Assembly (NCBI GenBank): GCA_016933455.1
Contig: JAFGAZ010000004.1
Span: forward strand, 9,116 to 73,115
Direction: 5' to 3'
Origin: Candidatus Aenigmatarchaeota archaeon
GTDB taxonomy: Archaea; Aenigmatarchaeota; Aenigmatarchaeia; Aenigmatarchaeales; Aenigmatarchaeaceae
Length of the DNA: 64,000 nt
Every line of letters starts with the position of its first letter. The stretch's first letter is position 1. Below the pieces are notes generated by a model. That model was not told the DNA's origin and made no database searches. It worked only from the letters and a program-made list of their open reading frames with translations. The translations under genes and the position numbers were made by a program. Below are positions 48,020-64,000 of this stretch, piece by piece.

Positions 48020-48945
48020 TTTGCTCTCCTGTAAATTATTATCGAAACAATTAATATCAATATTATTAGAATAAAAATTGTCATGTCGCCTTCCTGCTTA
48101 ATTGCCATTGTCGTTGCTTTTGAAAGCGTTATCTTGGAGCTCTTTTCTATTTCGCCTGTTCCATAATCTATTATAGTGTAAACATCGTAATCTTCTGCTT
48201 CTATTCCTTTTGTCGATAGTATGCCCTTGAAAGTGGCTATTTGCTTGGGTTCTATGTATTTTTTTGCCAGCTGAAGCTCGCCTACAAGGTTGCCTTCTTT
48301 GTCATACAGTCTCTGCAGCCCCTTGGCTGAAATAGTTACAGAACCTGTGTTTTGGAAATATGTCTTAATTTCCACAGAATTTTCATTATCATTTCCCAAT
48401 TCAACATCAAGTATTGCCCCTTTCCTTACAGCGTCTCCCGGCACTTTGAACATGACTTTTACAGAAGTTATGGCAACAACTTTGCTTCCCACATTGCCTA
48501 TGTCGCCTTGGTCGGAAAGCGGTATCGGCTTTATCTTAAACATGTGATCCCCAGGCTCCGCATCCCTTGGTATTTTTAAAAGAAAGCTAACCTTCCTGTG
48601 GCTGTTTATATTACCGCCTTCTGTTTCCAAGACATCGTATTCGGGTTCTAGTTCCACTGGATTGTTTATTATGTCAATCCATGATAAAACGTTCTCTTCG
48701 GAAAAGTTGTTCTTTAAGGCTACTGTGTCGAAAATAACTGTTTCCGGCTCTAGTTGCACAAGCAAGGTTTCTTCTGATGCTGTTACTATGTAGAAATCTA
48801 CTACTTCTGTCGTACCCGGAACCACTTGGCCCATGTTAAATGAGCCTGGAGAAACGCCTACATTTGCTGCCCCTACCATAATTGGGATAAATAGCAAAAA
48901 GACAAAGGAAAAAATTATGCAAGTTCCCAAAGAACGCGGTTTCAT
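48016..48945 (-). CDS. Secreted protein, 309 aa, with a C-terminal TM anchor.
   Basis: Signal peptide (IIFSFVFLLFIPIMVGAA) and C-terminal FILIILILIVSIIIYRRAK. Confidence 0.65.
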   Translation of the reverse strand: MKPRSLGTCIIFSFVFLLFIPIMVGAANVGVSPGSFNMGQVVPGTTEVVDFYIVTASEETLLVQLEPETVIFDTVALKNNFSEENVLSWIDIINNPVELEPEYDVLETEGGNINSHRKVSFLLKIPRDAEPGDHMFKIKPIPLSDQGDIGNVGSKVVAITSVKVMFKVPGDAVRKGAILDVELGNDNENSVEIKTYFQNTGSVTISAKGLQRLYDKEGNLVGELQLAKKYIEPKQIATFKGILSTKGIEAEDYDVYTIIDYGTGEIEKSSKITLSKATTMAIKQEGDMTIFILIILILIVSIIIYRRAK

Positions 48946-49021: not shown

Positions 49022-49921
49022 GTGTGTATAATGAAAAAAATGAAATTATTGATTTTTGGCGCAGTTTTATCTGCTTTTTTTGTTTTATTCGCTTTTAGTT
49101 TGGTTGCAATGCCAGCGTTCGCAGATTCAAGCGACACTGTTACTGTTGACGTAAATGTCTCAGAAGCATCTTCTATCACAGTGCTTCCAGCCACCCTTAA
49201 TTGGACAGACATAGCTTCGGGACAAGCCGGTGGTACAAAATACCTCAACATAAAAAACACGGGTTCTTTGAACGTATCTGAAATATACGCATATGTTGAT
49301 ACGCTGATTACAGAGCCTGTAAGACCATACGGTCTTGCATACCCAACCAACTATTCTGCGGGAAGCGTCATAACACTCAAGAACGAGACTGATACTGGTT
49401 ATTATTTTGCAGGAAGAATAGAGTGGAACTGGACACAAGATATTCCAAACAATGATTGGTCCGCAGTAACAGACCCTGTTGCATGGGGTTACTTTAGAAA
49501 TGCGAGCAGTGATTATGTTTGGGTTCTTGGAAACGGAACAACAGGCTGCAACGATACAGATGCAGAATTTGCAGTAGAGTATGATGTTGACTTGGGTACA
49601 ACTGCAACAAGAACCCCCGAGTCTATTGGGGCAGCGGATGATGGAGACGATGAATGGAGCTATTTCAGCGTTTCTGATGCAAGTTCCCCACTTGACACAT
49701 ATTGTGTGGCAGCGTACTATGACTGCACCAAGGTTTACATATACCACTATGACCAGAGAACATCTCCTAACTTTGCTGGTTGTGGCCTTTCAAGCTACTT
49801 GCAAGAAGCAAACCTAACCCCTGGTTACAGCATAATACTAGAAGTTGATGCTTGGGTGCCTTCCGGTTATCCATCAGGATACCTGAACACCACAACCCTA
49901 ACAGTCTACGCTTCTTCGTAG
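49022..49921 (+). CDS. Secreted protein, 299 aa. It is the only plus-strand gene in the surface locus.
   Basis: Signal peptide (AVLSAFFVLFAFSLVAMPAFA), many sequons, and no C-terminal TM. Confidence 0.6.
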   Translation: MCIMKKMKLLIFGAVLSAFFVLFAFSLVAMPAFADSSDTVTVDVNVSEASSITVLPATLNWTDIASGQAGGTKYLNIKNTGSLNVSEIYAYVDTLITEPVRPYGLAYPTNYSAGSVITLKNETDTGYYFAGRIEWNWTQDIPNNDWSAVTDPVAWGYFRNASSDYVWVLGNGTTGCNDTDAEFAVEYDVDLGTTATRTPESIGAADDGDDEWSYFSVSDASSPLDTYCVAAYYDCTKVYIYHYDQRTSPNFAGCGLSSYLQEANLTPGYSIILEVDAWVPSGYPSGYLNTTTLTVYASS

Positions 49922-49926
49922 TTGTT

Positions 49927-52900
49927 TTACTTTAACTTTTTCTCTATTTTACTCATCTTCTTCTCAAGGCTATCCTTCATTCTTGCATAGGTGCCTTCTG
50001 TTATCAGACCTTCGCTCTTTTCCTTGTCTAGGACTTTGATCATTCTGAATATCTTTTCCTTCTCTTTTTGAAGCATCTCAACTTCCGCATCGCTTTTTCC
50101 TGGTCTGTGGAAAGCTCCCTTGATTTTGGATAGCCTGTTTTTTAGAATACTTTTTAGTTTCTTCTTTCTTTGCAAATATACCAGAATTATGACGATTATG
50201 ATTATTGCTATTAAGCCTATGAAAATGAAAAGAAGCGACGAGAAAGTGTCTGGCTCCTCCATTTCCAGCATGTCCAAAAGGTCCCTTGCTCTTGATATGA
50301 GGCTAAGGGCGCTGCCTGTTTTTTCCATGCCAGCGTCTATGTCGTTGTTTTTCAGGTCCTTTTTGGCGTTTTCTATGTAGGATTCTATGGTGTCAACTAG
50401 TGTTTGGACATCCGATACGTCCTTTCCTTCCCTTTCAGCTACCCTGAGGTCTATTTTCAGCTCAATTAGGCTTTCCTCAACCATTGCTATCTCGGCTTCA
50501 AGAACTTCCTTTATCGAGCTAAAGATGTTTACCTCTATTGACTGCTGGTCGCTAACAACTCCTGATGTCACAAGCAGGCTGGCATCATAGTTTCCTGTGT
50601 TTGTGTTCTCGGGTATGTTGAACTCTACTAGGAATACTGAAGAATTGTCAGTTACAAGTTCATCGTATTTTGAAGGCGTTATGTTAAACCAGTTGGTCGG
50701 AACACCGAGAACAAAAAGGCTCACGTTATTTAGATCAACCCTTCCGCTGTTCTTTACAATCACTTTTTCTATTTTTGTAAAGCCTCTTGCAAGAGTTATG
50801 TTGTTGTTATAGCCTGTTATGAGTATGCTTGCATCGGTTTCCTGTGTTGGCTTTATAGCGTAATACGTCGGGGTATTTCCAACAGATGTCTGTGGTGGTG
50901 CGGGTGTTGTTCCTGCAGATGAGACGTAAAAAGTCACGTTAGCGTCTATGGGTGATTGGTATAGGCTGTATGTAACCTTGGCGTTTATGGTGTACGTTCC
51001 AAGAGGCTGGTCAGTGTATATGTATGCGTTTCTGGTAAAGCTGCTGTTGCTGTATGCTGGAGTTAAGACAGCCTCTGAAAATGAGTAGTAGCCATTTCCA
51101 GATTGGTCTGTTATGTTGTATATCACATAAACGTCTTGCGTCACCTCTCCTTTGTTTTCCAGAATTATCTCAAAGTCAAGATAGTCGCCCTGCGGGACCT
51201 CGTTTTCGAACAGGTTGAGCCTAACGTCGTAGGGACCTCCCTGTGAAACTCTGAATGCTTGTATCTTCATTGAGCTAAATGAGCCGTCAGAAACATTGAG
51301 TACAGCCATGTACATGCCTGTTGGTGTGCCAACACCCATTGCGTGCGAGTATGTATAGTATCCTGTTGCCTCTTTTGTAAGCGATGAAAGTGTTGTTGAA
51401 AAATAAAGGTTGTCTGCAGAATCGTAGACTGTCAGATTTATCTCGTCTGGGTCTATCGGTCTTCCCTCCCCGTTGTACACCAGCATGCCGAATTTCATTA
51501 TGTTGTTTGGATACCAAACAACAGATGTTTCAACATCAGCGAAAAGCCCTGTCACTGATATTGTCCTTGACTCTACATCGAAAGTGCTGTTTTTCTGTAG
51601 GTTCAGTGTCTGGTTTAGCACGTCTTCATAGAAGCTATAGTTGGTAAATAGCGTGTAGGTTCCTATGGGAGCGTCTGACTGTAAGGAGAACGTTGGCATG
51701 GGTGATATTGTTCCGTCAGAGTTGGACACGTTCTGCGAATAGTGTGTCAGGTTGCCATAAGGGTCTGTTATGTTAAAGGTTATGTTCGAATTGTTTATAC
51801 CCGTGCTGTTGGCATCCCTTAGCATAAAGTACAAGGAACCCGTGTCTCCCTGGTAGTACGTTCCTGCCAAAGGAGTTGACGTCACAAGCATTCTTTGGTA
51901 TATTGAAAAGTTAGTGCTGTAGTTGCCAAGGTTTCCTATGTTGTCCGAGCTGTATATGGAAACATTGTATATGCCTCTTTGGTTTGTGTTGCCAAGAGCT
52001 TCTGTGTAGTTTAGATACCATTGTGAAAAGTTTCCGCTTTCATTGAGTAGTGTCATGCTAGTGCTGCTTGAAAAGCTGTCGGGTTTTGTCACAGTTACAT
52101 TAAGCCACTTTATGCCGCTGTTTGACCTGTCTGTTAGGTTCACAAAGAACTCGACTGATTCGTTCTGCTCAGTGAAATTCGGGGTTATCAAAGTCTCCAT
52201 AAGCGGGGGAACATTGGGCAAAAGGTTTACTTGGAATGTTGCGTTGTCTGGTTGGGCGTCTGCCTGAGTTGCGTTAACCAAAAAAGTCGAGTTGAATATG
52301 GACGGCGATATGCCTGTTACGTTGTAAAGTATTGCCAACGTGTGATTGGAACTTCCGTTGACAGAGAATTCAGTTTCGTTTGCTGTTGTATAGTTGCCGT
52401 TTTCAGGGGAGACTGTGAAATTTATCACATCGTTTCCAATGTTCATTATCTCTATCTGGCACGCGGTTCCCTCTTCAGGCTCTTCTGCCTTTTCGCAGAA
52501 TGTGGGGTATAGTGTCCATGTTCTGTTTGAAAGCACGGTTATGTTTACCAATAAAGTGTCATAGTCTCCGTTGCCTGCAGAAACGTTCAAAGTTGCGTTG
52601 TAAACACCTGCTGGATAGCTAAGAGGTACTGTTGCATTCAATGAAACAGAGCTGTTATCATCTACATCAATGCTTGAGATGCTAGATGGCGTGAATTCTA
52701 AAGTAAAGTTATCGCACACGTCTCCGGAGATGCAACTAAATGCAATATTTTGCAAGGCGTCGTTTCCAATTGAAAGAACCGTAAAGTTGCTAATGTATGA
52801 TTCCTCTGCATCTGTTGCGCTTCCTGAAATGGTAATTTCACTTACGTTTATTTTGGGATTTGAAGCTACTGTTACGTTTAGGGTTGTTGTGTTAGAACCA

Positions 52901-55782
52901 GTGGAATCGTCGGGATTTGTCCAGTTGGAGCTTACATTTATGTAATAATTTCCTGTGGATGTTGCGTTGGGAACGGTTATGTTGAAAGCCTTTGTGCAAA
53001 CCTGGTCCTTTGTTATGTTGTCGCAATTTTCAATGCTAATGTTTGATGACCAGCCAATGGGCAACTGGATGCTCATGTTGGTGTCCCTGGCACTTCCGTT
53101 GCCTATGTTTTGCAAAGTGCTTTCAAAAAGGAAAGTCTGACTGTCAGCTTTTGATATATTGTAGACAGTTTGATTGTTGGGAGTTAGCAACATACTTAGA
53201 TTTGTTTCTGTTGGTATTGTGACAAACAAAAATATGGTGTCGTAACCGTTGTTTTCCGATGAGACGTTGACTGTTCCGTTATAAGTCCCAACAGCATAGC
53301 CTAACGGTACAGTTATGTTAACAGAAACAGACCCGTTTTCGTTGACATTAATTTGCGATATGTTCGCTGGTTCGAATTCTGCTGTAAAGTCATTGCAAAC
53401 CGTTCCTTCATAGCAATCGAAACTTATGTTCTGCAAGGCATCATTTCCAATCGAAAGAACCGTAAAGTTGCCGATGTAGTTTTCATAACCGTCTGCAACT
53501 TCCGTTGTTATGTTGTTTTCGAATATTCCTGTTCTTGGATTCGAAACTACTGTTACATTTATTGTTGTTAGATTGTTTCCAAGGGAGCTGTCAGGGTTGG
53601 TCCATTCGGAGCTTACGTTTATGTAGTAGTTTCCAGGAGACGTTGCGTTCGGTACTGTTATGTTGAAAGCCTTTGTGCAGTTCCCGTTCTTGTATATGTC
53701 ACCGCAATCCTGAACTAAAAAGTCCGCATCCCATCCTGCCAGAAGCTGAAGACTTATGTTCGATGAATATGCGGTTCCGTTGCCTATGTTTGTGGCATTT
53801 GCTGTTATCGAGAAGCTGTCGTTTTCATAAAGACTCACGTTGCTAACGCTTGTTTCCGAAGGGTAACTTGTTATGCTCATGTTTGTACCTGCTGTTTCCG
53901 AAGTGAAAGTTTCGCTGTCGTTTCCAAAGTTGCCGTATTTCGTGGCATTACAAATAAGAACATAGTCCCCTATTACAGGGGAGGTAAAATTGATAGAATA
54001 TGTCCCGTTTCCATGGTCTGTTTTGTTCAAAACTTCCGTGGAATTGTAGGAACAGTTTATTTGCGCGCCTGTTATATAGCTGCTAAGATTGTAGTTTCTT
54101 ACATCTATGCTGGCAAACACAAATGCGTTTTCTATTGGATTTTGATTTTCTATTGCCAATGTCACGTTAAAAATGTCTGTGACATTGAAGTTGTACAAAG
54201 TATAATTTAGGAACTCGCTCGAACTTGTGTATGTTGTTATATTTATTTGCCATTCTGTTACATTGGCATTGTTTGGTATGTCAATTGTGTTTGCAAATAG
54301 TTTATCATCGGCAGAACCATCGTCATGGGACCCGTCGTCATAAAGAATTATGGTGACATCATCGCCTGTGTCAGTAGTTCCCATGTCTATTGTTGCGTTC
54401 ATGTACTCTGTTAGGTTGTACGGGTCACCGCTTCCAAGGTCTCCTATTATTAGTGCTGTCTCGTTCCTGTTGAAAATAGTTGCGTTGCTTGAAGGCGCGT
54501 TGTTTACATACCAGAGTTCTGGAAGCGACTGTGTGATAACTATGGGGTTTGCGTACCTGTCCTTTATGTTGAGGAACTCTGTAACAGCGTCACCTCCTCC
54601 AGCTCCTGCAAAGTATATCAAAGACACTTGCTCTATGTACGAGTCCGCTGAAATTGTGGTATTGCTAAGCTCTATGCCAACCCTGCCGTTCAACGAGCTG
54701 CTTTCGTTGGCAAAGTAGTTTGAAGTTCCCGTCTGGTTCATGTTTATTATACCAACAAGCTCTCCGCCAATACCTGAAGCCCAAGACCATGAATAGGGGT
54801 TTGTTGTATCCCCATCCTGGTTGTTTATCAAACCCGAGTTGAATGTTCGGTTTACATCAAGCGCTAGCGCGCCTGATATGGTCGAGTTTCTCTGCACAGA
54901 ATATCCTGCGCTGTTGGTCACTCTTTGAACAACTTTTATGAAAGTACCTCTTGACTGGGGACCTGCGTTGTTGTAAACATAATATTTTTTGGTCAAGTTT
55001 GCTTCCCCTGTCTGTTGTGAAGGGCTATTGAAAATAACTTCGTTTCCGTTTTGCACAACCGTTACACGAACATCACCTTCAACAAAGGATGCACTCCCTA
55101 TCAAATTGAAAGACGTGTTGTGCGTCCCATTAAAGTATTCAATGTATTCTGTAGTTTTTTCAGAAATGTCAGAACTAAATATTACGTTGTCGTACTTGTC
55201 TTGGGATCTGTATATACCTGACGTGTTTTCAGCCCTGTTGGTATCCATGAAAAATCTCATAAAGCTGTTATTAACAGAAAACATCTGCCCATCCCAGCCG
55301 TAGGAAAGGTTAGTAGGATACGAAGCCTCGTCCTTTGGACCGTTGGAAGATGTGTCGTAATAAATATAGAATGTCCTGTTCGTGTCGGCACTGCTTGTCC
55401 CGTTCATTAGGAAGACCAAAGTCCCAACAGCGTTGCTGGAAGCGTCAAAATCTTCTGCTTGATCAAACTGGCATGGGACCTCATACAATATGCTTCCAGC
55501 CTGTGAGTATTCTATGACTCTTGTTGAGTTTATGTCAAACGTGCCTGAAGGAATTAGGTCGGTAAAGTTAACATCATACTCCACAGGCCAGTTCTCTCTT
55601 TCATACTGAACAGAATTTATGTCAAGCCTTGCCCTGTAATTCCAGGAAACATTCCACCATTCCGCATCCGTTGGCTGCCCAAAGCCTATGAACATGCCTG
55701 TTATGCCAGAACCTAGAATGTAAAAAGCAGCTGCAGATGTAACGAATATAGCTAAAACTACAAAAATAGCTGCTTTTTCCAT
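49927..55782 (-). CDS. Giant cell-surface protein, 1951 aa. It has an N-terminal signal/TM, a highly N-X-S/T-rich beta-rich ectodomain with a tandemly duplicated ~235-aa module, a coiled-coil stalk, a TM anchor and a ~75-aa cytoplasmic tail with a SHOCT-like motif.
   Basis: Near-identical internal repeats (CTKAFNITVPNATS[PT]GNYYINVSS[EN]WTNPD, FTVLSIGNDALQNI.F.C..G.VC.[DN]FT). C-terminal TM FIFIGLIAIIIIVIILVYL followed by QRKKK. The tail contains EGLITEGTYARMKDSLEKK. Confidence 0.8.
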   Translation of the reverse strand: MEKAAIFVVLAIFVTSAAAFYILGSGITGMFIGFGQPTDAEWWNVSWNYRARLDINSVQYERENWPVEYDVNFTDLIPSGTFDINSTRVIEYSQAGSILYEVPCQFDQAEDFDASSNAVGTLVFLMNGTSSADTNRTFYIYYDTSSNGPKDEASYPTNLSYGWDGQMFSVNNSFMRFFMDTNRAENTSGIYRSQDKYDNVIFSSDISEKTTEYIEYFNGTHNTSFNLIGSASFVEGDVRVTVVQNGNEVIFNSPSQQTGEANLTKKYYVYNNAGPQSRGTFIKVVQRVTNSAGYSVQRNSTISGALALDVNRTFNSGLINNQDGDTTNPYSWSWASGIGGELVGIINMNQTGTSNYFANESSSLNGRVGIELSNTTISADSYIEQVSLIYFAGAGGGDAVTEFLNIKDRYANPIVITQSLPELWYVNNAPSSNATIFNRNETALIIGDLGSGDPYNLTEYMNATIDMGTTDTGDDVTIILYDDGSHDDGSADDKLFANTIDIPNNANVTEWQINITTYTSSSEFLNYTLYNFNVTDIFNVTLAIENQNPIENAFVFASIDVRNYNLSSYITGAQINCSYNSTEVLNKTDHGNGTYSINFTSPVIGDYVLICNATKYGNFGNDSETFTSETAGTNMSITSYPSETSVSNVSLYENDSFSITANATNIGNGTAYSSNISLQLLAGWDADFLVQDCGDIYKNGNCTKAFNITVPNATSPGNYYINVSSEWTNPDSSLGNNLTTINVTVVSNPRTGIFENNITTEVADGYENYIGNFTVLSIGNDALQNISFDCYEGTVCNDFTAEFEPANISQINVNENGSVSVNITVPLGYAVGTYNGTVNVSSENNGYDTIFLFVTIPTETNLSMLLTPNNQTVYNISKADSQTFLFESTLQNIGNGSARDTNMSIQLPIGWSSNISIENCDNITKDQVCTKAFNITVPNATSTGNYYINVSSNWTNPDDSTGSNTTTLNVTVASNPKINVSEITISGSATDAEESYISNFTVLSIGNDALQNIAFSCISGDVCDNFTLEFTPSSISSIDVDDNSSVSLNATVPLSYPAGVYNATLNVSAGNGDYDTLLVNITVLSNRTWTLYPTFCEKAEEPEEGTACQIEIMNIGNDVINFTVSPENGNYTTANETEFSVNGSSNHTLAILYNVTGISPSIFNSTFLVNATQADAQPDNATFQVNLLPNVPPLMETLITPNFTEQNESVEFFVNLTDRSNSGIKWLNVTVTKPDSFSSSTSMTLLNESGNFSQWYLNYTEALGNTNQRGIYNVSIYSSDNIGNLGNYSTNFSIYQRMLVTSTPLAGTYYQGDTGSLYFMLRDANSTGINNSNITFNITDPYGNLTHYSQNVSNSDGTISPMPTFSLQSDAPIGTYTLFTNYSFYEDVLNQTLNLQKNSTFDVESRTISVTGLFADVETSVVWYPNNIMKFGMLVYNGEGRPIDPDEINLTVYDSADNLYFSTTLSSLTKEATGYYTYSHAMGVGTPTGMYMAVLNVSDGSFSSMKIQAFRVSQGGPYDVRLNLFENEVPQGDYLDFEIILENKGEVTQDVYVIYNITDQSGNGYYSFSEAVLTPAYSNSSFTRNAYIYTDQPLGTYTINAKVTYSLYQSPIDANVTFYVSSAGTTPAPPQTSVGNTPTYYAIKPTQETDASILITGYNNNITLARGFTKIEKVIVKNSGRVDLNNVSLFVLGVPTNWFNITPSKYDELVTDNSSVFLVEFNIPENTNTGNYDASLLVTSGVVSDQQSIEVNIFSSIKEVLEAEIAMVEESLIELKIDLRVAEREGKDVSDVQTLVDTIESYIENAKKDLKNNDIDAGMEKTGSALSLISRARDLLDMLEMEEPDTFSSLLFIFIGLIAIIIIVIILVYLQRKKKLKSILKNRLSKIKGAFHRPGKSDAEVEMLQKEKEKIFRMIKVLDKEKSEGLITEGTYARMKDSLEKKMSKIEKKLK

Positions 55783-55823: not shown

Positions 55824-56306
55824 CTATTCTAAACCGAAAATGTCGAATTGCACGTTGCTTTTCATGTAAGAAGAAGCCATGTAGTATTCCCCTGCTGTTA
55901 TTGAGCTAAAGCCAAATAACATCATCGGATATGCTGCAATTCCAAGGCTTGCCAAACCCATGTCCAAGGCGCTGAAAATAAAGGATAGCCCGAAAACCAC
56001 CATGAACATGTTCCTTCCCGGTGTTTTCATTGACAGGAAAAGAAGACCAAAACAAGAAGTCATCAAAAGGCCGCTAAGATAAAAAAGAGTCTGGTTCATG
56101 CCGTTTGCGCATATCATTTCAGTGTAAGGCCCCTCCAGCATGGAATTCAAAAGAACTGCCTTTCCCTGCTCGCAACCCATAAGATAGCCTGCCCCAAGAT
56201 GTGTTATTTCGTGTATAGATATTAGTGCGAAAAACACTGTCACATTGAGCAATATTATACTTAATATTTTCCTTTTCATGGGCTCACGAGAAGTAGTTAA
56301 ATACAA
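55824..56306 (-). CDS. Small polytopic membrane protein with an HExxH motif, a putative intramembrane metalloprotease.
   Basis: IHEITHLGAGYLMGCE lies at the end of the first TM helix, with four to five TM helices overall and 160 aa total. Confidence 0.5.
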   Translation of the reverse strand: MYLTTSREPMKRKILSIILLNVTVFFALISIHEITHLGAGYLMGCEQGKAVLLNSMLEGPYTEMICANGMNQTLFYLSGLLMTSCFGLLFLSMKTPGRNMFMVVFGLSFIFSALDMGLASLGIAAYPMMLFGFSSITAGEYYMASSYMKSNVQFDIFGLE

Positions 56307-56332: not shown

Positions 56333-56629
56333 CTATATTTCAACCCTTTCAATGACTTTCTTGACAGCCTCTATTTTCCTAATAGCCCTTTTTATCTCAA
56401 AGTTTATGTTTTTTTCCAGCTTTTTGCGCTCTTTTTGCAGGCTCTTTTCCTTGCCTTTGTATCTGCTTTCTGAAAGAGCGCCCTCTGAGAACGCTTTTGT
56501 ATTTTCCTTTATCTTTGTATCAAGAAAAAGAAGCTCTTCCTGAGAAATCTTTATTCTAGAGCTTAGTGAGACTATCTCTTCCAAGCCGTTTTCTATGCTG
56601 TTTAGCTTTATTTTCTTTACAACAGACAT
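56333..56629 (-). CDS. Small helical protein, 98 aa, with a SHOCT-like motif.
   Basis: SEGALSESRYKGKEKSLQKERKKL segment. It is paralogous to the adjacent 106-aa ORF. Confidence 0.5.
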   Translation of the reverse strand: MSVVKKIKLNSIENGLEEIVSLSSRIKISQEELLFLDTKIKENTKAFSEGALSESRYKGKEKSLQKERKKLEKNINFEIKRAIRKIEAVKKVIERVEI

Positions 56630-56950
56630 CTATTTCTTCCCCTTTGCCTTCTTCTCTTTTTTCACAGCACTGCATTCCTGCTTCTCAACCTCGCTTTTTA
56701 TGTTGACTAGCATGTCCACATTGGTTTTCAGCAGCGTCTTTATGCTCTTTATTATGCTTACGCTTTTTCTTTTCAGGCTCTTTTCGTTTGCATTGAATTT
56801 GTTTTTTGAAAGCCTGCCGCGTTCAAATTCCTTGTTATTTTGGTATATCGAATTTAGCATGCCTTCTAGCTCGGTTTGAAGAATGCTTATTTCGAACGAA
56901 TTCTCGAAAATTTGTCTTGCTGTTTCCTCGATTCTTTTTTGGTTAATCAT
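56630..56950 (-). CDS. Small helical protein, 106 aa, with a SHOCT-like motif.
   Basis: ERGRLSKNKFNANEKSLKRK segment. Its stop abuts the next gene's start (56629/56630). Confidence 0.5.
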   Translation of the reverse strand: MINQKRIEETARQIFENSFEISILQTELEGMLNSIYQNNKEFERGRLSKNKFNANEKSLKRKSVSIIKSIKTLLKTNVDMLVNIKSEVEKQECSAVKKEKKAKGKK

Positions 56951-56954
56951 GAAA

Positions 56955-59165
56955 TCATACCTTTAATTCTTTAAGGTTATCTAGTATTTTTTTCTTTTGG
57001 TCCTCGTTTCCTTTCGTCTTTTTTGTTTTCTTTGGTTTCTTTTTTTCCTTTTTGGTTTTTTTATCTTCCTTTTTTGGCTTCTCTTCAGACTCTTTCTTCT
57101 GGGGTTTTTCTTCCTTTTCCAAAGGCTCTTCCTTTTTTGGCTCTGATACTCTTTCTTTTGCTGCTTGTGGGTGGAGCAAGACATCTATGTTTTTCCACTG
57201 CTCCTCTATCTTGGACCTTATTTCGTCAAGTTTTCTCTCGTTTAGGCGTTTCATTTCCTCGTACTCTGCCTTGTTCATCTTGTGCTCGATCATCTGCATT
57301 TCGAGCGAATCCATGAACATCTTTATGTCTTCCTTTTCCTTTCTTAGTTTTATTAGTTCTTCCGGCAGTTTCAAATCCGCTACTGGCAAAATTTTCTTTA
57401 TTTCTTCTATCTGCTTTTTGATTAGAATGTTTTCCTCTTTGAAATCGTCCAAGTCCTCTTTTGAAACATACTCTTTGAGCTTGACATTGAGGGTGTCTAT
57501 TGATGTAAGAACATTTCTCATGCTCTCGTCGAAATCCTCCTGCTTGGCCTTGATCATGACCAAGTCCTCAAGACCCTTGCTTAGGTCTATGAATATCTTT
57601 TCCGTCTTGGTTCCTATCCTTTGTATGTACTTTATGGCCTCGTTTATGTCCTTGATTTTCTTCTGAATATCCCCGTTTAGGCCTATTAAGTTTTCAATGC
57701 CCCCTATGCTTTTTAGCATGTCGTATATCTCATTGACCTTGTCAACGCTGCCTTCTGACTTTCTTTTCACCTTTTCTAGATCCAGCTTGTCCTTTTCTCT
57801 TTCTTCTTTTAGAAGGTTGAACTTCTTTGTCAGCTCTTTTGGCTTTATGTCAGACACTTCGTCCTCTAGCCTTTCCATGTTGGCAGAAGTTGTCTTGAAA
57901 TTGGCATCGGCCTGCATAACCATGGACCTTATCTCGCCTATGTTTTCAGAAATGTTTTGTATTGCCTCGTCAGTTGCTTTTTTAGACTCCTTGAAAGTGT
58001 CAATCATGACTTTTAGCTTCTCTATTTCTATTGATAGTTTGTTGTCGTTCGGTATTGCGCTCTCTTCTTCGCTGCTATCTTCCGTATCTTCTATAGGAAC
58101 GTCGGCTGCGCTGTCTCCAGCCATCTGGGCAGATAGTTTTTCTATGACTTCTGGTGTTACTTCCTCTATCTTGTCTATGTCAAGCTTCTCTTCAGGCTCT
58201 TCTTTTTTCTCGGGCGTTTCTGCTTTGTTTTCTTTCTTGTCATCTTTCTTTTCCTCGGGTTTTTCTTCCTTTGGCTTTTCTTCAGGTTCAGAATTTACTT
58301 TTTCTGCTGGAGCCTTAACCTCATTTGGTTGCTCCTCAATTTTTATATCTTCTTTTGGAGCATCCAAAACAGCAGCTTTTTGTTCAACTATCTTATTTTC
58401 TTTTGTTTCTTCCCTTTCATTCAAATTTTCCTGTTTAACAGCTTCTTTTGCCGCGCTATTAGTATCAGAATTATTCTTATCCTTTTTGCCAAACATTTTC
58501 TTGAAGAACCCTTTCTTTTCAACTTTTGGCTTTTCATCTTCCTTTATTTCATCTGTCATATCAATTACCTCGTCTTCTTTTTTTGTTTCATCTTGAACAT
58601 AAACCAATTCTTCCTCTTTAGGAACATCTTCTATTACTATCGTGGGGGTGTCGCCGTCAAGAGTTATTTTGACATCTTCTGTTTCGTTTCCTGTTTCTTT
58701 AGCAGTTTCTATGCCATCTTCAATAGTTTCATTTCTTTCTTCTCGGACTTTATTTTCCTTCTTTCCAAAGAGTCTGCTAAAGAACCCTTTCTTTTTCTTC
58801 TTTACCTTTATTTCAACTTCCTTTTCATCCTCTTCTAGAACCTTGTCAAGTTCCTTTAGCCTCTCCTCGTTGACATTTTTTATATTTTCATAATCTTCCT
58901 TATTAATCTCCCCGTTTCTGAACTGATCTTCCAATGAGTCTATGAACATCTGCACGTCCTTTCTTTCGCTTTCCCTCTTTCTTTTTTCAATACTGTCTTC
59001 TCTTTTATCCGTTATGTTCAACAATTCGTGACACCTTTTTCTTTTTTCCGCATAATCCTTTTCCGATATGTCTGCCATCCTGTATAGGTCCTCGAGCCCA
59101 ATTAGCATGTCCCTGGCTTCCTTTACGTTTGCCGGGGGCCTGTTGAAGTTGACTAGACCTATCAT
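56955..59165 (-). CDS. Cytoplasmic lysine/glutamate-rich coiled-coil protein, 736 aa, with SHOCT-like motifs at both ends and an acidic low-complexity core.
   Basis: N-terminal LEDLYRMADISEKDYAEKRKRCHELL and MFIDSLEDQFRNGEINKEDYENIKNVNEERLKEL. C-terminal MFMDSLEMQMIEHKMNKAEYEEMKRLNERKLDEI. No TM helix. Poly-lysine C-terminal tail. Confidence 0.7.
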   Translation of the reverse strand: MIGLVNFNRPPANVKEARDMLIGLEDLYRMADISEKDYAEKRKRCHELLNITDKREDSIEKRKRESERKDVQMFIDSLEDQFRNGEINKEDYENIKNVNEERLKELDKVLEEDEKEVEIKVKKKKKGFFSRLFGKKENKVREERNETIEDGIETAKETGNETEDVKITLDGDTPTIVIEDVPKEEELVYVQDETKKEDEVIDMTDEIKEDEKPKVEKKGFFKKMFGKKDKNNSDTNSAAKEAVKQENLNEREETKENKIVEQKAAVLDAPKEDIKIEEQPNEVKAPAEKVNSEPEEKPKEEKPEEKKDDKKENKAETPEKKEEPEEKLDIDKIEEVTPEVIEKLSAQMAGDSAADVPIEDTEDSSEEESAIPNDNKLSIEIEKLKVMIDTFKESKKATDEAIQNISENIGEIRSMVMQADANFKTTSANMERLEDEVSDIKPKELTKKFNLLKEEREKDKLDLEKVKRKSEGSVDKVNEIYDMLKSIGGIENLIGLNGDIQKKIKDINEAIKYIQRIGTKTEKIFIDLSKGLEDLVMIKAKQEDFDESMRNVLTSIDTLNVKLKEYVSKEDLDDFKEENILIKKQIEEIKKILPVADLKLPEELIKLRKEKEDIKMFMDSLEMQMIEHKMNKAEYEEMKRLNERKLDEIRSKIEEQWKNIDVLLHPQAAKERVSEPKKEEPLEKEEKPQKKESEEKPKKEDKKTKKEKKKPKKTKKTKGNEDQKKKILDNLKELKV

Positions 59166-62100
59166 TTACTCATCCTCTCCAACCTTTTTTCTAGCGAGTC
59201 TAGATAGGTCTCTGCCATCTTGAAAGCTGCTGTCTTAACCTTGTCTCTGGCTATGTTCAGCTCTATTTCTATATCATAAGTATCGACTTTTTGTGCCTTT
59301 AATTTTTCTATTTTCTCTTCCAGAGCCTTGACTTTCTTGTCAAGCGTCATGTAGGTGTCTATTTCCTTGTCTGTCAAAGCGAAAGGCGAGTGCAAAAGCG
59401 GCCTGAAGTTCACGAACCACGGCCTTCCGTGGTTGAACTCTGGGTTCTGGAACAGACCAGTACCAATTGTCAGCCTTGTCACCTTTGACGCGTAGTCTGA
59501 GCCGTACTTGGACTTGACCCTTCCTATGTCTCCCTCGTACTTTGTTCTTAGCTGTATTTCGTTTGCGATGTTTGCTCTGATGGCTCCCTTAAAGTCCAAA
59601 AGCACCTGCGATATCATGAAGATACCAATGCCCCACTTTCTGAACTCTCTGGCAGCCCTTTCTATTGCAGTGTAACCCTTCTTACCGCCGTACTTTGGCA
59701 ATAGCCTGTGGACTTCGTCGTACACCAAGAGCAGCTTTATCTCCTTGGATTCGGTCGGTCTCATGTCGAATATTTCTTGTATGCTTCTTCTAACGAACTT
59801 GTCGTTCTCTGAAGCGCTAAGCCTGTTCATGACAAAGACAGTTATCTCTCCGGGCTTCATGTACTTCTTTATGTTTATCTCCATGTCCCCGTCTTCTACA
59901 AGTATCACATTGGTCTTGAACCTTGTTGCATCGCTGGGCTTGAGACCGAATTTCGGATACATGGCAAGCATTGGCTTGAGTGTGTTTGGCTTCATAAATC
60001 CTGTCCATTGTGCTGTGGGGTCGAATACGATTATCGGCACCTTTCTTTTTAGCAACTCTTCTGCTGTTACCATGGCTGATACGGTCTTACCCGATCCAGT
60101 ACCACCGGCGGCTATTGAGTGCATGAGCAGTTGCGGTATTGGTATGTACGACTTGATGTCGGTTTCGGCTATCCTACCAACCAGTAGCGAGTCTGCACCC
60201 TCTTTTGGTAGAGCCTTAAAGTCCAGAGGCGCTATGTACCTTGCTTTGGCAGTCTTTGATGCCTTGAATGCGGCGTACCATCTAAGGCCTACGAGCAGGC
60301 TTGGCACTCCGCCCAGAAGCACAACGTAAGTTATCCAGTTTAGGAATATCGATTTGAGAAGTATGAGTATCCACGGCAGTTTTGTTACCTCAAAGTCGTC
60401 TGATGAGGATGCGTACTTGTTGCCGTCCCAGTAGCTAACATTCGTGTCAATCAAATACATGCCTTCTGGTGTGTTTTCAGGTATTTGGACTGTTCTTTTG
60501 AAGGTTAGCACATTCTCGACTGCCAAAGTCTCTGTGTTTGTGGTTATTATTTCGTCTGGACCGTTTAGAGGTCTGACAGTGTACGTTACCGTTATGTCGT
60601 TTATCTCTGCTGTTTCTCCCATGTTGAGCAGGGTCGTTTCAAACGTCAGGTTGGTTCCGGGATTAATAGATTCTGAAAGAACCTTTACCTGAACGTCCAT
60701 AAGAGGCTCTAAAACTTCCCTTACAGTTATGGTTACAGGCGTTGTGTGCTCAACATCGCCTGCTGTCACAACTATGTTTCCTGTGTAGATGCCAGGAACT
60801 GCTGTGAGAGGCGCTTGTGCCCTTATTGATACGGATTCTGTTGTTTTGCCGTTGAGTCTAAATGACGGCCTTTGTATGGTCAACAAATTGAACACGGGGC
60901 CTTCCACTACTATTGAAACAGTGACATCCTCGTCAAGGTTGTTTATTATGTCTGTAGAGAAAGTTTTTTGCTCTCCTGGCGTTAGCGTTGTCTCTATTAT
61001 TGTTGACCTAACTTCCAGAGGCACGATGTTTACATCAACTCCTGTTTGGGTTGTTGTGGATGTGCCTGAACCAGATCCTCCACCGCCTCCTCCCGCTCCT
61101 CCGCCAGTGATAGGGTTGGTTGGCGTTGGCGGCACATACAGGCAGTCTGTTGGGCAGTTGCTTGTTGTTTCTCCATAGTTGGACTCGCATTCGCCATCTC
61201 CGCATATGAATTCTGCTAGCACATACACGCCTGTTATGTCTGATACGTTTATTCTTGCTTCAAGGCTTGTCAGGTTGACACTGTCATCACCATTGTCCAT
61301 GTCCGTGTTGCTAAGTCTGCTAAACAGCGAGTTGTCAGTTGAACTTACCTTGTTGGTCCAGTTGCCCGTGTACTTGTATATACCCAAGTGGTTTGGATCT
61401 ATTATGGGGAAGCCGCAAGCGCTATTTAGGCACTCTGAAAAGTCTATTATTATCGTTGCGTTCTCAAAAGGCAGCGTGTTGTTTACGTAAAAGCCCTTGA
61501 GCACTGTGCTAGAAGTTCTGACAGTTGGTATCTTACCGAACGAAACAGAGTTGTTGTAGTTTATGGATATGTTTGAGTTGTACAATTTGATGCTGTTATC
61601 GAAAGCGTCACCGCTAGTGCTTATTACAATGTCATAAACTTTCGAGTCTATTGTCTCGTTGTAATATCCTGTTGTCAAGTTAGAGCTAAAGTTGGACCTA
61701 ATATCATTTGTGTCGTAGTCATAGAAAGTAAAGTTGACATTTATTACTGGATCGAGTATGTTCTCTATGTCTTTGGTGTAACCACTGAACAAAACTATTG
61801 GATATATCTCGAAATTATCTGATGATGCGTTGCAGTTGTTTGACAAATCACATGATGTTATGTTGAATGTGTAGTTGCCAAGCTGCGAAGTGTTGCTAAA
61901 GTTAAAGCCGTAGGAATAGACGTCTGGTGTTTGAGATTTCAAAATCAGTGTTATATTCTGTGTAGTGTTGTCAGGCAGCTTCATGCTCGCCGTTATATTT
62001 TTTAGACCTCCGGACTCTGTAATATTTGCCCCTATACAAACTGAAGAGTTTACAGGAACCCTAATTGGTATTTCAACGTCTATCAAAGGAGCAGCCTCGT

Positions 62101-64000
62101 CCTCATAGACTATGGAATTGTATTCTATATCTGACCTGACGTTGTAATATGTTCCGTTGTGGAAACCAGTGATGTTTAGGTTGTAAACTCTTCCTGTGCT
62201 AAGGTTAGGCGCTATGAAATCTATTTCCCAGGCATTATGAGGAACGCTATAGTCTTGGTTGTTAATTGTAGCGTTTGTTGATATTGTGTCGTTGAATATA
62301 ACAACTTCGAATGTAACGTTTTCTGTTATCATGCTAGAGTTCTGTGTTACATTGACCCATGTCTCTATGTTGTCTCCGACATTTACGTCAATTTCTGGAA
62401 CGCTTTGTGTCGGGGAAACTATGTTAACATTGTATGGTGTTACAAACAGTGTGACTTCTGTTGAAACTTCCTTTACACTTGCGTTCTCCCTCATTGCGCC
62501 TGTTATGTTAGTTGTTATGAAACCTGTGTAGTTGGCATCGTATGTTATGTTCGGCGATGAGTAGTTTATGGTTATGAAGCTGGAATTGCCGTACTGGGAA
62601 GTTATATTGTAGCTGTCAAGCGTTATGTAAGGAGATATGGTTCCGTTTACTGTTACGTTCAAGCTCATGTTGGCGTTTCCGGTGTTTATGATTTCTATCT
62701 GACCAAACTGTCCCTGCGTCCCGTCCTTGACCCTTTGCACTATTTCCGTCGGGTCGTGTATCCAAGATACGTTTGCCGGAACTAGTATGTAAACCGGCAT
62801 CTCCCTGTAGAACGATGGCTGCGTGTAATTATCCGACCAGCTTATGTTCATGGTGCCGTTGTATGTTCCTGTCTGATAGTTCGAAGGAACTGTTAGCGTT
62901 ATGTTGAATGTCGACGAGTTTCCTATCTCAAGCAATGACACGTTCTGTGGTTCGTAATCAATAGTAAAGTTCTCGCATACTTCGCCTGATGTACATTCAA
63001 TGCTTATGTTGGTTGCGTTGACGTTTCCAATTGATGTCAAAGTCAAGTTTGTTGTCTTAGGCGTTCCTGCCCAGGCGACCTCTGATATCTGGCTCTTTGA
63101 AACTCCTATGAACGGATTTGCCGTTACGTTTACAGGAAGGCTGTAGACGCTGGTGTTATTAGAGTTGTTTAGGTTGACCCACTGGCTTGTGAAATTCACA
63201 TAATATGTCCCTGGAACAGTTGAGCTGTCAACACTAATTGTTGTTATGTTGTATTCTGCCTCGTTCTTGAGCAGTGTTCCGAACTGGAAGTATGTGGGGG
63301 TTGCGCTTGTGTTGTTGGAATAGTTCAAAGATACATTCACTTCGTGTGCTCTGGAACCTCCAAAGTTGCTTGCAGAAAAGTTTATAGCAAAGCTCTGTCC
63401 GCTTACCTGCGTTATGTTGGTCGCGTTTATTGTGGTAACATTTGGCACTATTGTTATCTCGGTCGTGTCAGAGCTTGTGACGTTAACAGGGTCTGTGCAC
63501 GTTGTCAGCGTTTGTGTATCGTTTGCGCATATTATTATCTGGTGCAGTCCTGCCACCGGATATTCGTATGTGATATTGAAGCTGTCGTTGTGTGTATTTA
63601 TCATGGGCAGTATGAAGCTAGAGCTGTTTGGTGGAGTTATGTTTACCCATGCATGGCTAACAGCATAGTTGTCTGTTATGTTGGCTTCTATTGTGACGTT
63701 CTCATACCCTTGCTCGAATGCTAGCGGGTCAATAACAACATCATCTATGACCGGAGGTATGTCTGTTACGTTGAGTGTGAAAGTCACATTCTGGCTTGCC
63801 GGGTCTGCTGTTACGTTTCTTATCAGAAGCGTTACATTATACAGTCCGTCTGTCACAAAGTCTGGAACAGTGTATGATATGTTTATGTTTCTGCTAACCT
63901 GCTTCTCAAGGTCGAAGCTGTACCAGTTAACTCCCTCTATTCTAACATAGCCGTTGTCTCCTGATTTTGTCACTTCGAACGGTATCTTTACGTTTCCTAT
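59162..64000 (-). CDS. Fusion protein of at least 1612 aa whose N-terminus runs off the window. More than 1100 aa of extracellular adhesin-like, sequon-rich domains with a Gly/Thr linker are joined through one TM helix to a C-terminal cytoplasmic HerA/VirB4-like (DUF87, FtsK-HerA superfamily) ATPase.
   Basis: Walker A AAGGTGSGKT, followed by IIVFDPTAQW (the HerA 'FDPHGEY' position) and Walker B LLLVYDEVH (HerA 'EEAH'). TM WILILLKSIFLNWITYVVLLGG. The ectodomain shares the CxxGxVCxNFT module with the 1951-aa protein. The frame stays open to the window edge, and the tracked start is a GTG. Confidence 0.8.
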   Translation of the reverse strand: MGNVKIPFEVTKSGDNGYVRIEGVNWYSFDLEKQVSRNINISYTVPDFVTDGLYNVTLLIRNVTADPASQNVTFTLNVTDIPPVIDDVVIDPLAFEQGYENVTIEANITDNYAVSHAWVNITPPNSSSFILPMINTHNDSFNITYEYPVAGLHQIIICANDTQTLTTCTDPVNVTSSDTTEITIVPNVTTINATNITQVSGQSFAINFSASNFGGSRAHEVNVSLNYSNNTSATPTYFQFGTLLKNEAEYNITTISVDSSTVPGTYYVNFTSQWVNLNNSNNTSVYSLPVNVTANPFIGVSKSQISEVAWAGTPKTTNLTLTSIGNVNATNISIECTSGEVCENFTIDYEPQNVSLLEIGNSSTFNITLTVPSNYQTGTYNGTMNISWSDNYTQPSFYREMPVYILVPANVSWIHDPTEIVQRVKDGTQGQFGQIEIINTGNANMSLNVTVNGTISPYITLDSYNITSQYGNSSFITINYSSPNITYDANYTGFITTNITGAMRENASVKEVSTEVTLFVTPYNVNIVSPTQSVPEIDVNVGDNIETWVNVTQNSSMITENVTFEVVIFNDTISTNATINNQDYSVPHNAWEIDFIAPNLSTGRVYNLNITGFHNGTYYNVRSDIEYNSIVYEDEAAPLIDVEIPIRVPVNSSVCIGANITESGGLKNITASMKLPDNTTQNITLILKSQTPDVYSYGFNFSNTSQLGNYTFNITSCDLSNNCNASSDNFEIYPIVLFSGYTKDIENILDPVINVNFTFYDYDTNDIRSNFSSNLTTGYYNETIDSKVYDIVISTSGDAFDNSIKLYNSNISINYNNSVSFGKIPTVRTSSTVLKGFYVNNTLPFENATIIIDFSECLNSACGFPIIDPNHLGIYKYTGNWTNKVSSTDNSLFSRLSNTDMDNGDDSVNLTSLEARINVSDITGVYVLAEFICGDGECESNYGETTSNCPTDCLYVPPTPTNPITGGGAGGGGGGSGSGTSTTTQTGVDVNIVPLEVRSTIIETTLTPGEQKTFSTDIINNLDEDVTVSIVVEGPVFNLLTIQRPSFRLNGKTTESVSIRAQAPLTAVPGIYTGNIVVTAGDVEHTTPVTITVREVLEPLMDVQVKVLSESINPGTNLTFETTLLNMGETAEINDITVTYTVRPLNGPDEIITTNTETLAVENVLTFKRTVQIPENTPEGMYLIDTNVSYWDGNKYASSSDDFEVTKLPWILILLKSIFLNWITYVVLLGGVPSLLVGLRWYAAFKASKTAKARYIAPLDFKALPKEGADSLLVGRIAETDIKSYIPIPQLLMHSIAAGGTGSGKTVSAMVTAEELLKRKVPIIVFDPTAQWTGFMKPNTLKPMLAMYPKFGLKPSDATRFKTNVILVEDGDMEINIKKYMKPGEITVFVMNRLSASENDKFVRRSIQEIFDMRPTESKEIKLLLVYDEVHRLLPKYGGKKGYTAIERAAREFRKWGIGIFMISQVLLDFKGAIRANIANEIQLRTKYEGDIGRVKSKYGSDYASKVTRLTIGTGLFQNPEFNHGRPWFVNFRPLLHSPFALTDKEIDTYMTLDKKVKALEEKIEKLKAQKVDTYDIEIELNIARDKVKTAAFKMAETYLDSLEKRLERMSK

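Follow-up and report, generated by a model that had tools for sequence, protein, structure and literature searches.

A SHOCT-like helical hairpin recurs in a coiled-coil scaffold, two mini-proteins and the tail of a surface protein encoded by an archaeal gene cluster

A 64,000-nucleotide stretch of contig JAFGAZ010000004.1, hereafter the window, from the assembly GCA_016933455.1 of a Candidatus Aenigmatarchaeota archaeon, contains six minus-strand genes arranged head to tail, and a SHOCT-like helical hairpin recurs six times in four of their products. The source is an uncultured DPANN archaeon (Aenigmarchaeota) that probably has a symbiotic lifestyle. According to the layout of the open reading frames (ORFs), neighbouring genes overlap or are separated by gaps of 41 nucleotides (nt) or less. 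The first of them, g1603 (59162..64000), continues in frame past the window edge and encodes the C-terminal portion of a giant ATPase-bearing surface protein. It is followed by cc736 (56955..59165), whose start and the stop of the ATPase gene share 4 nt, and which encodes a 736-residue, lysine- and glutamate-rich coiled-coil scaffold predicted to be cytoplasmic. The next two genes encode the mini-proteins s106 (56630..56950; 106 residues, predicted to be cytoplasmic) and s98 (56333..56629; 98 residues, a paralogue of s106). The 160-residue membrane protein m160 (55824..56306), which has an HEITH motif, sits between the mini-proteins and g1951 (49927..55782), a 1951-residue surface protein with NEW3 and MG2 domains, a transmembrane (TM) helix and a tail ending in a copy of the hairpin.

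The initial annotation of the window had described the recurring element as a motif of about 30 residues present in six copies. All six peptide strings have been found within a few dozen bases of where they had been placed: in cc736 at residues 24-49 (59019-59096), 85-106 (58848-58913) and 629-649 (57219-57281), in s98 at residues 49-67 (56429-56485), in s106 at residues 44-62 (56765-56821), and in the tail of g1951 at residues 1924-1942 (49957-50013), all on the minus strand. The recurring motif itself is real, but the conserved unit is longer, with a length of about 50 residues. The pattern originally written for it, G-[LI]-[IS]-x-E-x-Y-x-x-[KM]-K-x-x-L, is a loose paraphrase that, taken literally, matches none of the six copies. 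The complete modules, on the same strand, comprise residues 13-58 (copy 1, 58992..59129), 63-112 (copy 2, 58830..58979) and 606-655 (copy 3, 57201..57350) of cc736, residues 21-72 of s106 (56735-56890), residues 26-77 of s98 (56399-56554), and residues 1902-1951 of g1951 (49930..50079), which form the extreme C-terminus of that protein. Their loops read M-A-D-I-S in copy 1, with alanine replacing glycine, N-G-E-I-N in copy 2, E-H-K-M-N in copy 3 (G-K-I-S in most homologues), R-G-R-L-S in s106, E-G-A-L-S in s98, and E-G-L-I-T in the tail of g1951, so that the loop glycine position is occupied by A, G, H, G, G, and G in the six copies. The module has been found in no other ORF of the window with a hidden Markov model (HMM) pooled from the scaffold and tail copies.

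The alignment of 86 scaffold and tail pieces is free of gaps over about 55 columns, and its consensus is roughly KEKEDIxxLLxxLExEYRxGxISxExYxELKxKNxxKLxEIE. An aromatic residue is present in 100% of the module copies. Relative to this residue, [ILV]-[ST] is located 5 and 4 positions before, a lysine or arginine at +4, and a leucine at +11. In the four copies that have been modelled with AlphaFold2 (the three of cc736 and the one of s106), the module is predicted to consist of a helix, a 5-residue loop, and a second helix, with a total length of ~50 residues and the loop on x-G-x-[IL]-[SN]. Copy 1 is predicted to be formed by helix 14-29, loop 30-34, and helix 35-83, and copy 2 by helix 35-83, loop 84-88, and helix 89-124, both within a region (residues 11-110) with a predicted local distance difference test score (pLDDT) of 85-97. 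Copy 3 is predicted to be formed by helix 602-626, loop 627-631, and helix 632-664 (pLDDT 83-92 for residues 601-660). The s106 model is one single long helical hairpin made of helix 2-43, loop 44-48, and helix 49-104, with a pLDDT of 93.2 and a predicted template modelling score of 0.76. The loops predicted in these four copies agree with the general SHOCT design, a two-helix hairpin with its loop on G-x-I-[ST]. Foldseek searches of the cc736 and s106 models against the Protein Data Bank (PDB) gave no match at E <= 0.001.

The similarity of the copies has been measured against chance both within the window and across related loci. Within the window, Smith-Waterman scores were compared with those of 500 composition-preserving shuffles of the partner sequence. 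The highest z-score was obtained for copies 2 and 3 of cc736 (13.8), followed by s106 and s98 (8.9), the tail and s98 (6.1), copies 1 and 2 (5.2), copy 3 and the tail as well as the tail and s106 (5.1 each), and copy 2 and the tail (4.4). The other 8 of the 15 pairs are individually non-significant. As a result of the seven significant pairs (z 4.4-13.8), the six copies join as one chain that runs from copy 1 through copies 2 and 3 to the tail, s98, and s106.

For the comparison across loci, family profiles were built from 41 related loci for the scaffold N-terminal copies (N), the scaffold C-terminal copies (C), the tails (T), and both mini-proteins. The hhalign scores are 84.9 for N-C, 60.0 for N-T, 60.5 for C-T, and 76.8 for S106-S98, while a maximum of ~22 was obtained in 72 decoy comparisons with reversed profiles and other coiled-coil segments from the same proteins. 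One decoy, core4, was excluded because it overlaps copy 3. The weakest link is the one between the mini-proteins and the other classes, for which the one-by-one scores are 21-34. When pooled, the mini-protein profile aligns with the scaffold-plus-tail profile in register and without gaps over 49 of 52 columns, with a score of 35.6 and a probability of 95%; the null scores for this comparison reach 14.0 when columns and 22.6 when blocks are shuffled (150 shuffles each), and 17.2 with reversed profiles. The module is also kept in scaffold homologues that are rich in alanine, proline, and glutamine and not in lysine and glutamate (P0088, P0170, and P0200), e.g. LEAMLSFLEDSYTEGSISEESYRELKAENSKRL. 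The initial annotation had named lysine/glutamate-rich helical composition as an alternative explanation of the matches. Since the window shuffles, the family-profile decoys (reversed profiles and coiled-coil segments), and these homologues all speak against it, a composition artefact is excluded. The comparisons confirm, at the level of sequence, that the six copies in the scaffold, the two mini-proteins, and the tail of g1951 are one homologous module beyond composition-matched chance. The C-terminal coiled coil of the ATPase protein g1603 has been considered as a seventh copy and rejected (hhalign at most 17.6).

SHOCT has been described as a domain of ~30 residues with two amphipathic helices, a short loop, no indels, and a conserved glycine and glutamate, which in 89% of the SHOCT proteins is located within 50 residues of the C-terminus (PMC3581485). 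In the Pfam scans, no family cut-off is reached by any of the 117 homologous pieces of the module, and the 7 class consensus sequences also stay below that of SHOCT. Among the six window pieces, only copy 2 matches Pfam SHOCT (PF09851, gathering cut-off 27 bits), with 17.7 bits and E = 0.0031. Weak SHOCT matches are seen for 7 of the 65 homologous scaffold pieces (best E = 0.0017) and for none of the 21 tails and 31 mini-protein pieces, and the consensus sequences score at most 16.3 bits. Whole-protein Pfam and NCBIfam scans of cc736, s106, and s98 gave no match. The profile comparison with SHOCT that had been suggested in the initial annotation was made with nine natural PF09851 proteins, a small set of low diversity, and gave a score of 19.8 (E = 1.4e-4) over 29 columns in register, in which G aligns with G and Y with F, together with I[ST], K, and L. 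This score lies above the maxima of the nulls (15.0 and 17.1, 150 shuffles each) and of the decoys (at most 14.9), but the match is weak, with a probability of 53% and a score far below those within the family.

The likeness between the module and SHOCT, including the related families SHOCT_2 (PF20612) and DUF1707 (PF08044), lies in the two-helix hairpin with its loop on G-x-[IV]-[ST], in the aromatic residue 4 positions after the serine or threonine, followed by a basic residue and a leucine, and in the lack of indels. The predicted fold of two helices and a short loop and the 86 gapless pieces correspond to the SHOCT description in a longer unit of ~50 residues. This unit differs from SHOCT by a conserved first helix (EKEDIxxLLxxLE) and a continuation (KNxxKLxEIE). 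The loop glycine is present in 4 of 25 N-terminal copies (alanine in 19 of 25), 24 of 40 C-terminal copies (absent in 16), 13 of 21 tails, and 30 of 31 mini-proteins. The conserved glutamate of SHOCT, taken here as the residue preceding the aromatic residue (EEF of the natural SHOCT sequences), is found in 1 of 25 N-terminal and 26 of 40 C-terminal copies and in none of the 21 tails and 31 mini-proteins. The g1951 tail module is located at the extreme C-terminus behind a TM helix, the classic SHOCT position, and all 21 tails have the module within 50 residues of the C-terminus. On the other hand, the tail copy is the only one of the six in the window that is C-terminal: the three scaffold copies lie outside this range and the loops of the mini-proteins are found mid-protein.

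In an exhaustive search, a 52-column profile of the module was compared with 1.84 billion representative proteins, and 427 clusters were obtained at E <= 1e-3. The best 150 of these 427 include 136 new proteins, of which 120 have the scaffold core, 14 are N-terminal fragments of scaffolds, and 2 are different, P0177 and P0181. P0177, a protein of 312 residues matched by the module profile at E = 4.0e-13, reaches 70.1 bits with SHOCT, 66.4 with GvpG, and 38.4 with SHOCT_2, and P0181 (283 residues with a signal peptide, E = 4.8e-13) reaches 57.4 bits with GvpG and 40.6 with DUF1707. Both proteins are made up only of tandem arrays of 4-5 SHOCT-like hairpins of ~60 residues each. They pass the Pfam thresholds because the scores add over the repeats, the single repeats being sub-threshold. 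Through these two proteins, the module is linked transitively to the SHOCT-like superfamily. A homologue search with the module alignment yielded only four fragments of tails or scaffold N-termini and is uninformative on the wider distribution.

Across all classes, the weak Pfam match that recurs most often is to a C-terminal segment of GvpG (PF05120, profile positions ~25-67), over a stretch similar in length to the module. GvpG takes part in gas-vesicle assembly as a small, soluble accessory protein. The segment is weakly matched by 9 of 21 tails, 18 of 65 scaffold pieces, and 11 of 31 mini-protein pieces. All seven class consensus sequences also match GvpG weakly, which is true of no other Pfam family. 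These matches are always sub-threshold, no piece reaching the cut-off of 30.6 bits (best E = 0.0003). Moreover, there is no gas-vesicle gene among the conserved genes of the cluster, in which the module genes are flanked by those for surface proteins, for a HerA-type ATPase, and for a membrane protein with an HExxH motif. The recurrent matches arise because the C-terminus of GvpG is itself SHOCT-like. A SHOCT consensus peptide scores 47-49 bits with SHOCT and also 22-27 bits with the same GvpG segment, and 2 of the 9 natural SHOCT proteins are annotated with both families. P0177 and P0181 likewise show that the two Pfam models, GvpG and SHOCT, recognise partly the same sequences. The assignment of the element to the SHOCT type is weakly supported: the hairpin design and the link through these two proteins speak for it, the profile match is in register but weak, the Pfam cut-offs are not reached, and the glycine and glutamate are kept only in part. 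The placement of the module as a longer, divergent variant within the broad SHOCT-like hairpin class, outside PF09851 as now defined, is partly supported, at the superfamily level only.

The scaffold cc736 is 100% identical to NCBI JW700_01115 from a Candidatus Aenigmarchaeota metagenome-assembled genome (MAG), and 51 further homologues have been found at E <= 2e-60. From its N-terminus, it comprises the first two hairpin copies, a disordered linker in which two MinD-like motifs are located, a helical core that is conserved (residues 374-599), the third hairpin copy, and a basic tail that is again disordered. Lysine and glutamate make up 18.1% and 17.8% of its residues (36% together), and it has no transmembrane segment; neither cc736 nor s106 nor s98 has a hydrophobic segment. 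This is in line with the cytoplasmic lysine/glutamate-rich coiled-coil scaffold of the initial annotation. Copies 1 and 3 have been found in every cc736 orthologue. Copy 1 scores 50.8 bits (i-E 2.5e-16) with the ccN HMM and only 11.8 bits with the pooled module HMM. It is kept in all 25 aligned homologues as LLHLEDEYRKAxISEKxYxELKEKY, with Glu25, Glu35, and Tyr38 invariant. Copy 3 scores 52.3 bits with the pooled HMM, and Asn642, Leu646, and Trp657 are invariant in the homologues. Copy 2 scores 57.1 bits, is restricted to the subclade of the window (P0001-P0013 of the family alignment), and is 40% identical to copy 3, of which it is a recent lineage-specific duplicate. A relationship of cc736 to CdvA is not claimed, the top Foldseek match being a CdvA filament with only E = 0.47 and the Pfam CdvA matches being sporadic and sub-threshold.

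The two amphipathic motifs in the linker of cc736 are KKKKKGFFSRLFGKK (residues 122-136, 58758..58802) and EKKGFFKKMFGKKDK (residues 216-230, 58476..58520), both on the minus strand. The first resembles the membrane-targeting sequence of E. coli MinD, KGFLKRLFGG (PMC5471200), and the second contains the block KK-GFFKxxFKKK, which is conserved across the family alignment. In the second motif, Gly219 is conserved at 90% or more, and a short helix (residues 221-224) is predicted by AlphaFold within a disordered stretch. Like the MinD sequence, KKGFFSRLFGKK and KKGFFKKMFGKK of cc736 are short and basic-hydrophobic and have the same pattern (KKGFFxxxFGKK), and they are located within disordered linkers. 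In contrast to the MinD sequence, they are internal and not C-terminal, and the protein that carries them is not an ATPase. MinD-like motifs occur in many homologues, with 1-3 copies each, and the strict pattern is found in 16 of 43 cc homologues as compared to 0 of 151 other proteins of the same loci. Peripheral membrane binding of cc736 is suggested by the fact that the motifs are specific to the cc proteins and conserved, and cc736 is probably membrane-proximal, where these putative motifs would bind it.

The mini-proteins s98 and s106 are 30% identical. Orthologues have been identified in related loci for both, 17 for s106 and 14 for s98. Mini-proteins are detected in 20 of the 41 loci, namely in 19 of the 30 orthologous and 1 of the 11 paralogous loci. 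In about half of the loci, the s106-s98 pair is inverted relative to the scaffold gene. The inverted orientation is seen in L003, L007, L008, L010, L012, L013, L021, L026, and L041, as opposed to the window, L004, L005, L009, and L016. In the inverted loci, m160 and g1951 hold their position on the same strand as the scaffold gene. Since the pair alone is inverted, it behaves as an invertible cassette.

The surface protein g1951 is composed of an N-terminal signal or anchor, NEW3 and MG2 domains (Pfam NPCBM_assoc, 1.4e-24, and MG2, 4.5e-21), a coiled-coil stalk, a TM helix, and the hairpin tail. The TM helix is predicted at residues ~1847-1870 and is followed by QRKKK and a basic tail of 81 residues that contains the module, in agreement with the claim that the motif is located in the cytoplasmic tail of this protein. 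The tail hairpin scores 48.0 bits with the pooled HMM. It had been suggested to look for the motif in surface-protein tails of related genomes, and there it is kept in all 13 complete g1951 orthologues and in 8 tails of paralogous loci. The g1951 orthologues of related loci have a length of ~1950 residues. The gene of the MG2/NEW3 surface protein is always adjoined by m160. The HExxH motif of m160 (HEITH) is kept in 22 of 22 orthologues, and there is a weak match to a Peptidase_M50B-like family (E = 0.076). It may be a membrane metalloprotease that acts on one of the surface proteins.

The other surface protein of the cluster, g1603, has NEW3-type domains, a TM helix at residues ~1202-1220, a HerA/FtsK-type ATPase, and a C-terminal coiled coil. 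Two Pfam families are above their cut-offs, DUF87 (31.7 bits, cut-off 23.2) and HerA_C (26.2 bits, cut-off 22). The translation contains the Walker A sequence GGTGSGKT and also LLLVYDEVH, which fits a Walker B sequence, and HerA-like helicases are the closest PDB entries by sequence (best E = 1.6e-06). NCBIfam gives weak matches to CedD, HerA, and TraC, every equivalog score being far below its cut-off. On these signatures, the ATPase is assigned to the HerA/FtsK-type P-loop class. The reading frame is open to base 64000 and the homologues have 4720, 9240, and 8853 residues, so the protein of 1603 residues is only a C-terminal piece. The DUF87/HerA_C ATPase behind a TM helix is comparable to the membrane-anchored HerA/VirB4-type translocation ATPases, such as CedD of the Ced DNA import system, TraC/VirB4, and HerA. 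The difference is that the ATPase here makes up the cytoplasmic end of a surface protein that can reach 9240 residues. No other component of a Ced or type IV secretion system has been identified among the cluster genes scanned. To our knowledge, a HerA-type ATPase as the cytoplasmic C-terminus of a giant surface protein has no described precedent.

The order of the genes in Aenigmatarchaeota genomes is the ATPase-ended surface protein, the scaffold, s106 and s98 (in either orientation), m160, and g1951, followed by three further genes, p299, p309, and p165. The order from the ATPase protein through cc, where present s106 and s98, and m160 to g1951 holds in 41 loci, and the cc gene adjoins the ATPase gene in all 41, often with overlapping stop and start codons. 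The four proteins with the module all belong to this one tightly packed operon. In the paralogous loci (L030-L040), the scaffolds are ~30% identical and a triad of genes is kept. Their sources are MAGs of Aenigmatarchaeota and of unclassified archaea, plus two MAGs, one labelled Parvarchaeota and the other Pacearchaeota, which carry longer versions of the triad. A minimal three-gene form is found in L031, L033, L034, and L037 (Aenigmatarchaeota and unclassified archaeal MAGs). In L033 (7683-12459), for example, the first gene encodes a protein of 727 residues with a signal peptide, NEW3-like domains, a TM helix, and a HerA-type ATPase, the second a 527-residue scaffold with one module copy, and the third a protein of 333 residues with a signal peptide, an Ig-like domain, a stalk, a TM helix, and a tail with the module near its C-terminus. 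The presence of the module in the scaffold and the tail even of minimal triads makes it an old feature of the system. By gene order and predicted domains, the core of the operon is this triad: a surface protein with a TM helix and a HerA/FtsK-type ATPase, a coiled-coil protein from the gene directly downstream, and a single-pass surface protein with the hairpin at the end of its short cytoplasmic tail. The full cluster is conserved in Aenigmarchaeota. Giant and minimal versions are found together in some genomes, namely CAYFXV (L009, L031) and WVXN01 (L016, L037). A description of the operon has not been found in the literature searched for DPANN and Aenigmarchaeota, the coverage of which is incomplete, and the cluster for giant surface proteins is apparently hitherto undescribed.

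The genes are considered to be functionally coupled because their order is held in 41 loci, the cc gene adjoins the ATPase gene, and in the minimal triads the cc protein as well as the tail has retained the module. The module is found on every non-enzymatic component of the operon that is predicted to be cytoplasmic. Based on these observations, we tentatively propose that the hairpins serve as docking elements that tether the scaffold to the tail of g1951, a role that they may quite possibly have. In the proposed mechanism, single antiparallel hairpins would pair to form four-helix bundles. The scaffold would probably be held at the inner face of the membrane by its MinD-like amphipathic motifs, and its hairpins would capture the tail hairpin of the MG2/NEW3 surface protein g1951, with the single-hairpin mini-proteins serving as adaptors, caps, or competitors. 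Such tethering through paired hairpins is plausible, and it would involve physical contacts between the copies that we only infer.

A structure that resembles this arrangement is the cytoplasmic domain of OST1 from Candidatus Prometheoarchaeum (8WHN), the best PDB sequence match of the module, which is marginal (E = 0.028, 17.5 bits) and covers two tandem stretches in register; in Foldseek, 8whn ranks 17th with E = 2.7. The cytoplasmic domain of the Asgard OST1/ribophorin I has been solved as a four-helix bundle and pulled down ribosomes (PMC11417166). As in g1951, the helical-hairpin unit of OST1 is part of the cytoplasmic tail of a single-pass membrane glycoprotein, and the structure shows how two such hairpins can pack as a four-helix bundle (PMC11417166). 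By comparison, the second repeat of 8WHN has a one-residue insertion, and the tail of g1951 has one hairpin instead of two. OST1 is part of the oligosaccharyltransferase (OST) complex, and no OST gene has been identified among the cluster genes scanned with Pfam and NCBIfam.

Several observations weigh against tethering by the hairpins. In a crude permutation test, the tail and scaffold hairpins of the same locus are no more similar to each other than those of different loci (p = 0.67 for the tail and the C-terminal copy, 0.09 for the tail and the N-terminal copy, and otherwise 0.98 and 0.64). The premise of the initial annotation that SHOCT domains are proposed oligomerisation modules does not help, since the experiments of the proposing paper, which are the only published test of whether SHOCT associates with itself, gave a negative result (PMC3581485). 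The mini-proteins s98 and s106 of the window score less than 5 bits each with the scaffold-plus-tail HMM, and their membership in the module family rests on the family-level profiles and the pairwise z-scores to the tail. Furthermore, no mini-proteins are detected in 11 of the 30 cc-bearing orthologous loci or in the majority of the paralogous loci, and they are therefore accessory and not essential. The long helices flanking the loops could also be simply the turn of an intramolecular antiparallel coiled coil.

There are two serious rivals to the docking explanation, and the analyses used here do not separate the three. According to the first, which we regard as somewhat unlikely, the hairpin is a structural element only, the turn of the antiparallel coiled coil of each protein, and has spread inside the operon through duplication and shuffling of domains, with no contacts between the four proteins. 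This is consistent with the long helices that surround every loop in the models, with s106 being nothing but one hairpin, with the generic hairpins that are the only Foldseek matches of s106, with the missing co-variation within loci, and with the published finding that SHOCT did not oligomerise (PMC3581485). The duplication of copy 2 from copy 3 also indicates that the module spreads by duplication. What speaks against a purely structural role is the tail hairpin of g1951, a free-standing unit of 50 residues at the end of an otherwise unstructured tail of 81 residues, so that there is no larger coiled coil for it to belong to. Its conservation over all orthologues and the paralogous triads goes beyond the needs of a mere turn. 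Isolated hairpins expose a hydrophobic face and normally require a partner, which is a further argument against this rival.

The second rival, which we hold to be unlikely, is that every hairpin binds a common third partner, such as the hexameric HerA-type ATPase or its C-terminal coiled coil, the ribosome, a nucleic acid, or the membrane. In its favour, the scaffold gene is next to the ATPase gene without exception (41 of 41 loci), the OST1 domain that gave the best PDB match pulled down ribosomes (PMC11417166), 112 and 77 N-glycosylation sequons are found in g1951 and g1603, respectively, and the authors of the SHOCT study proposed that the domain binds to something other than itself (PMC3581485). 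These points are countered by the marginal level of the OST1 match and by the dissimilarity of the ATPase coiled coil to the module, with which binding would still be compatible, and the results point to no particular partner. That the copies share no common module and resemble each other only through their lysine/glutamate-rich helices is very improbable: this composition is common to all four proteins, all Pfam matches are sub-threshold with many unrelated coiled-coil families also matching weakly, and 8 of the 15 window pairs are non-significant, but the shuffles, reversed profiles, and coiled-coil segments of the same proteins score far lower, the copies align in register and without gaps around an aromatic residue that never varies, the predictions for four copies arrive at the loop position independently, and the module persists in homologues of different composition.

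Hairpins of the SHOCT type are very common. The variant described here is confined to the cytoplasm-facing, non-enzymatic parts of one operon, i.e. the scaffold, the two mini-proteins, and a receptor-like tail. This confinement yields a defined set of candidate partners, which has so far been missing for the SHOCT class, and hence a direct binding experiment. More unusual than the module is the conserved operon, above all the HerA-type ATPase in surface proteins of up to 9240 residues. The cluster is a concrete candidate for part of the machinery by which the ultra-small, host-dependent DPANN archaea attach to their hosts and take material from them. A wider interpretation, which we consider speculative and unlikely, is that the operon encodes a new cell-surface apparatus of DPANN archaea. 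In such an apparatus, a giant adhesin-like protein of up to ~9,000 residues, with a HerA/FtsK-type translocation ATPase fused to its cytoplasmic end, would be coupled by a membrane-bound coiled-coil platform to a second giant surface protein with MG2 domains of the alpha-2-macroglobulin type, with the SHOCT-like hairpins as dedicated connectors for assembling the cytoplasmic side and the mini-proteins regulating the assembly. If this were true, the apparatus could supply the energy for attaching to the host cell or for transferring material from it.

The three further conserved genes of the cluster are located beyond g1951 and encode predicted small surface proteins, p299 (49022-49921) on the plus strand and p309 (48016-48945) and p165 (47522-48019) on the minus strand. 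They appear to have Ig-like folds, and p165 has weak Pfam matches to ASH and HYDIN-type Ig-like domains. All three are syntenic with the cluster in L003, L004, L009, L016, and L021. The p299 gene is present in duplicate in L003, L009, L011, and L021.

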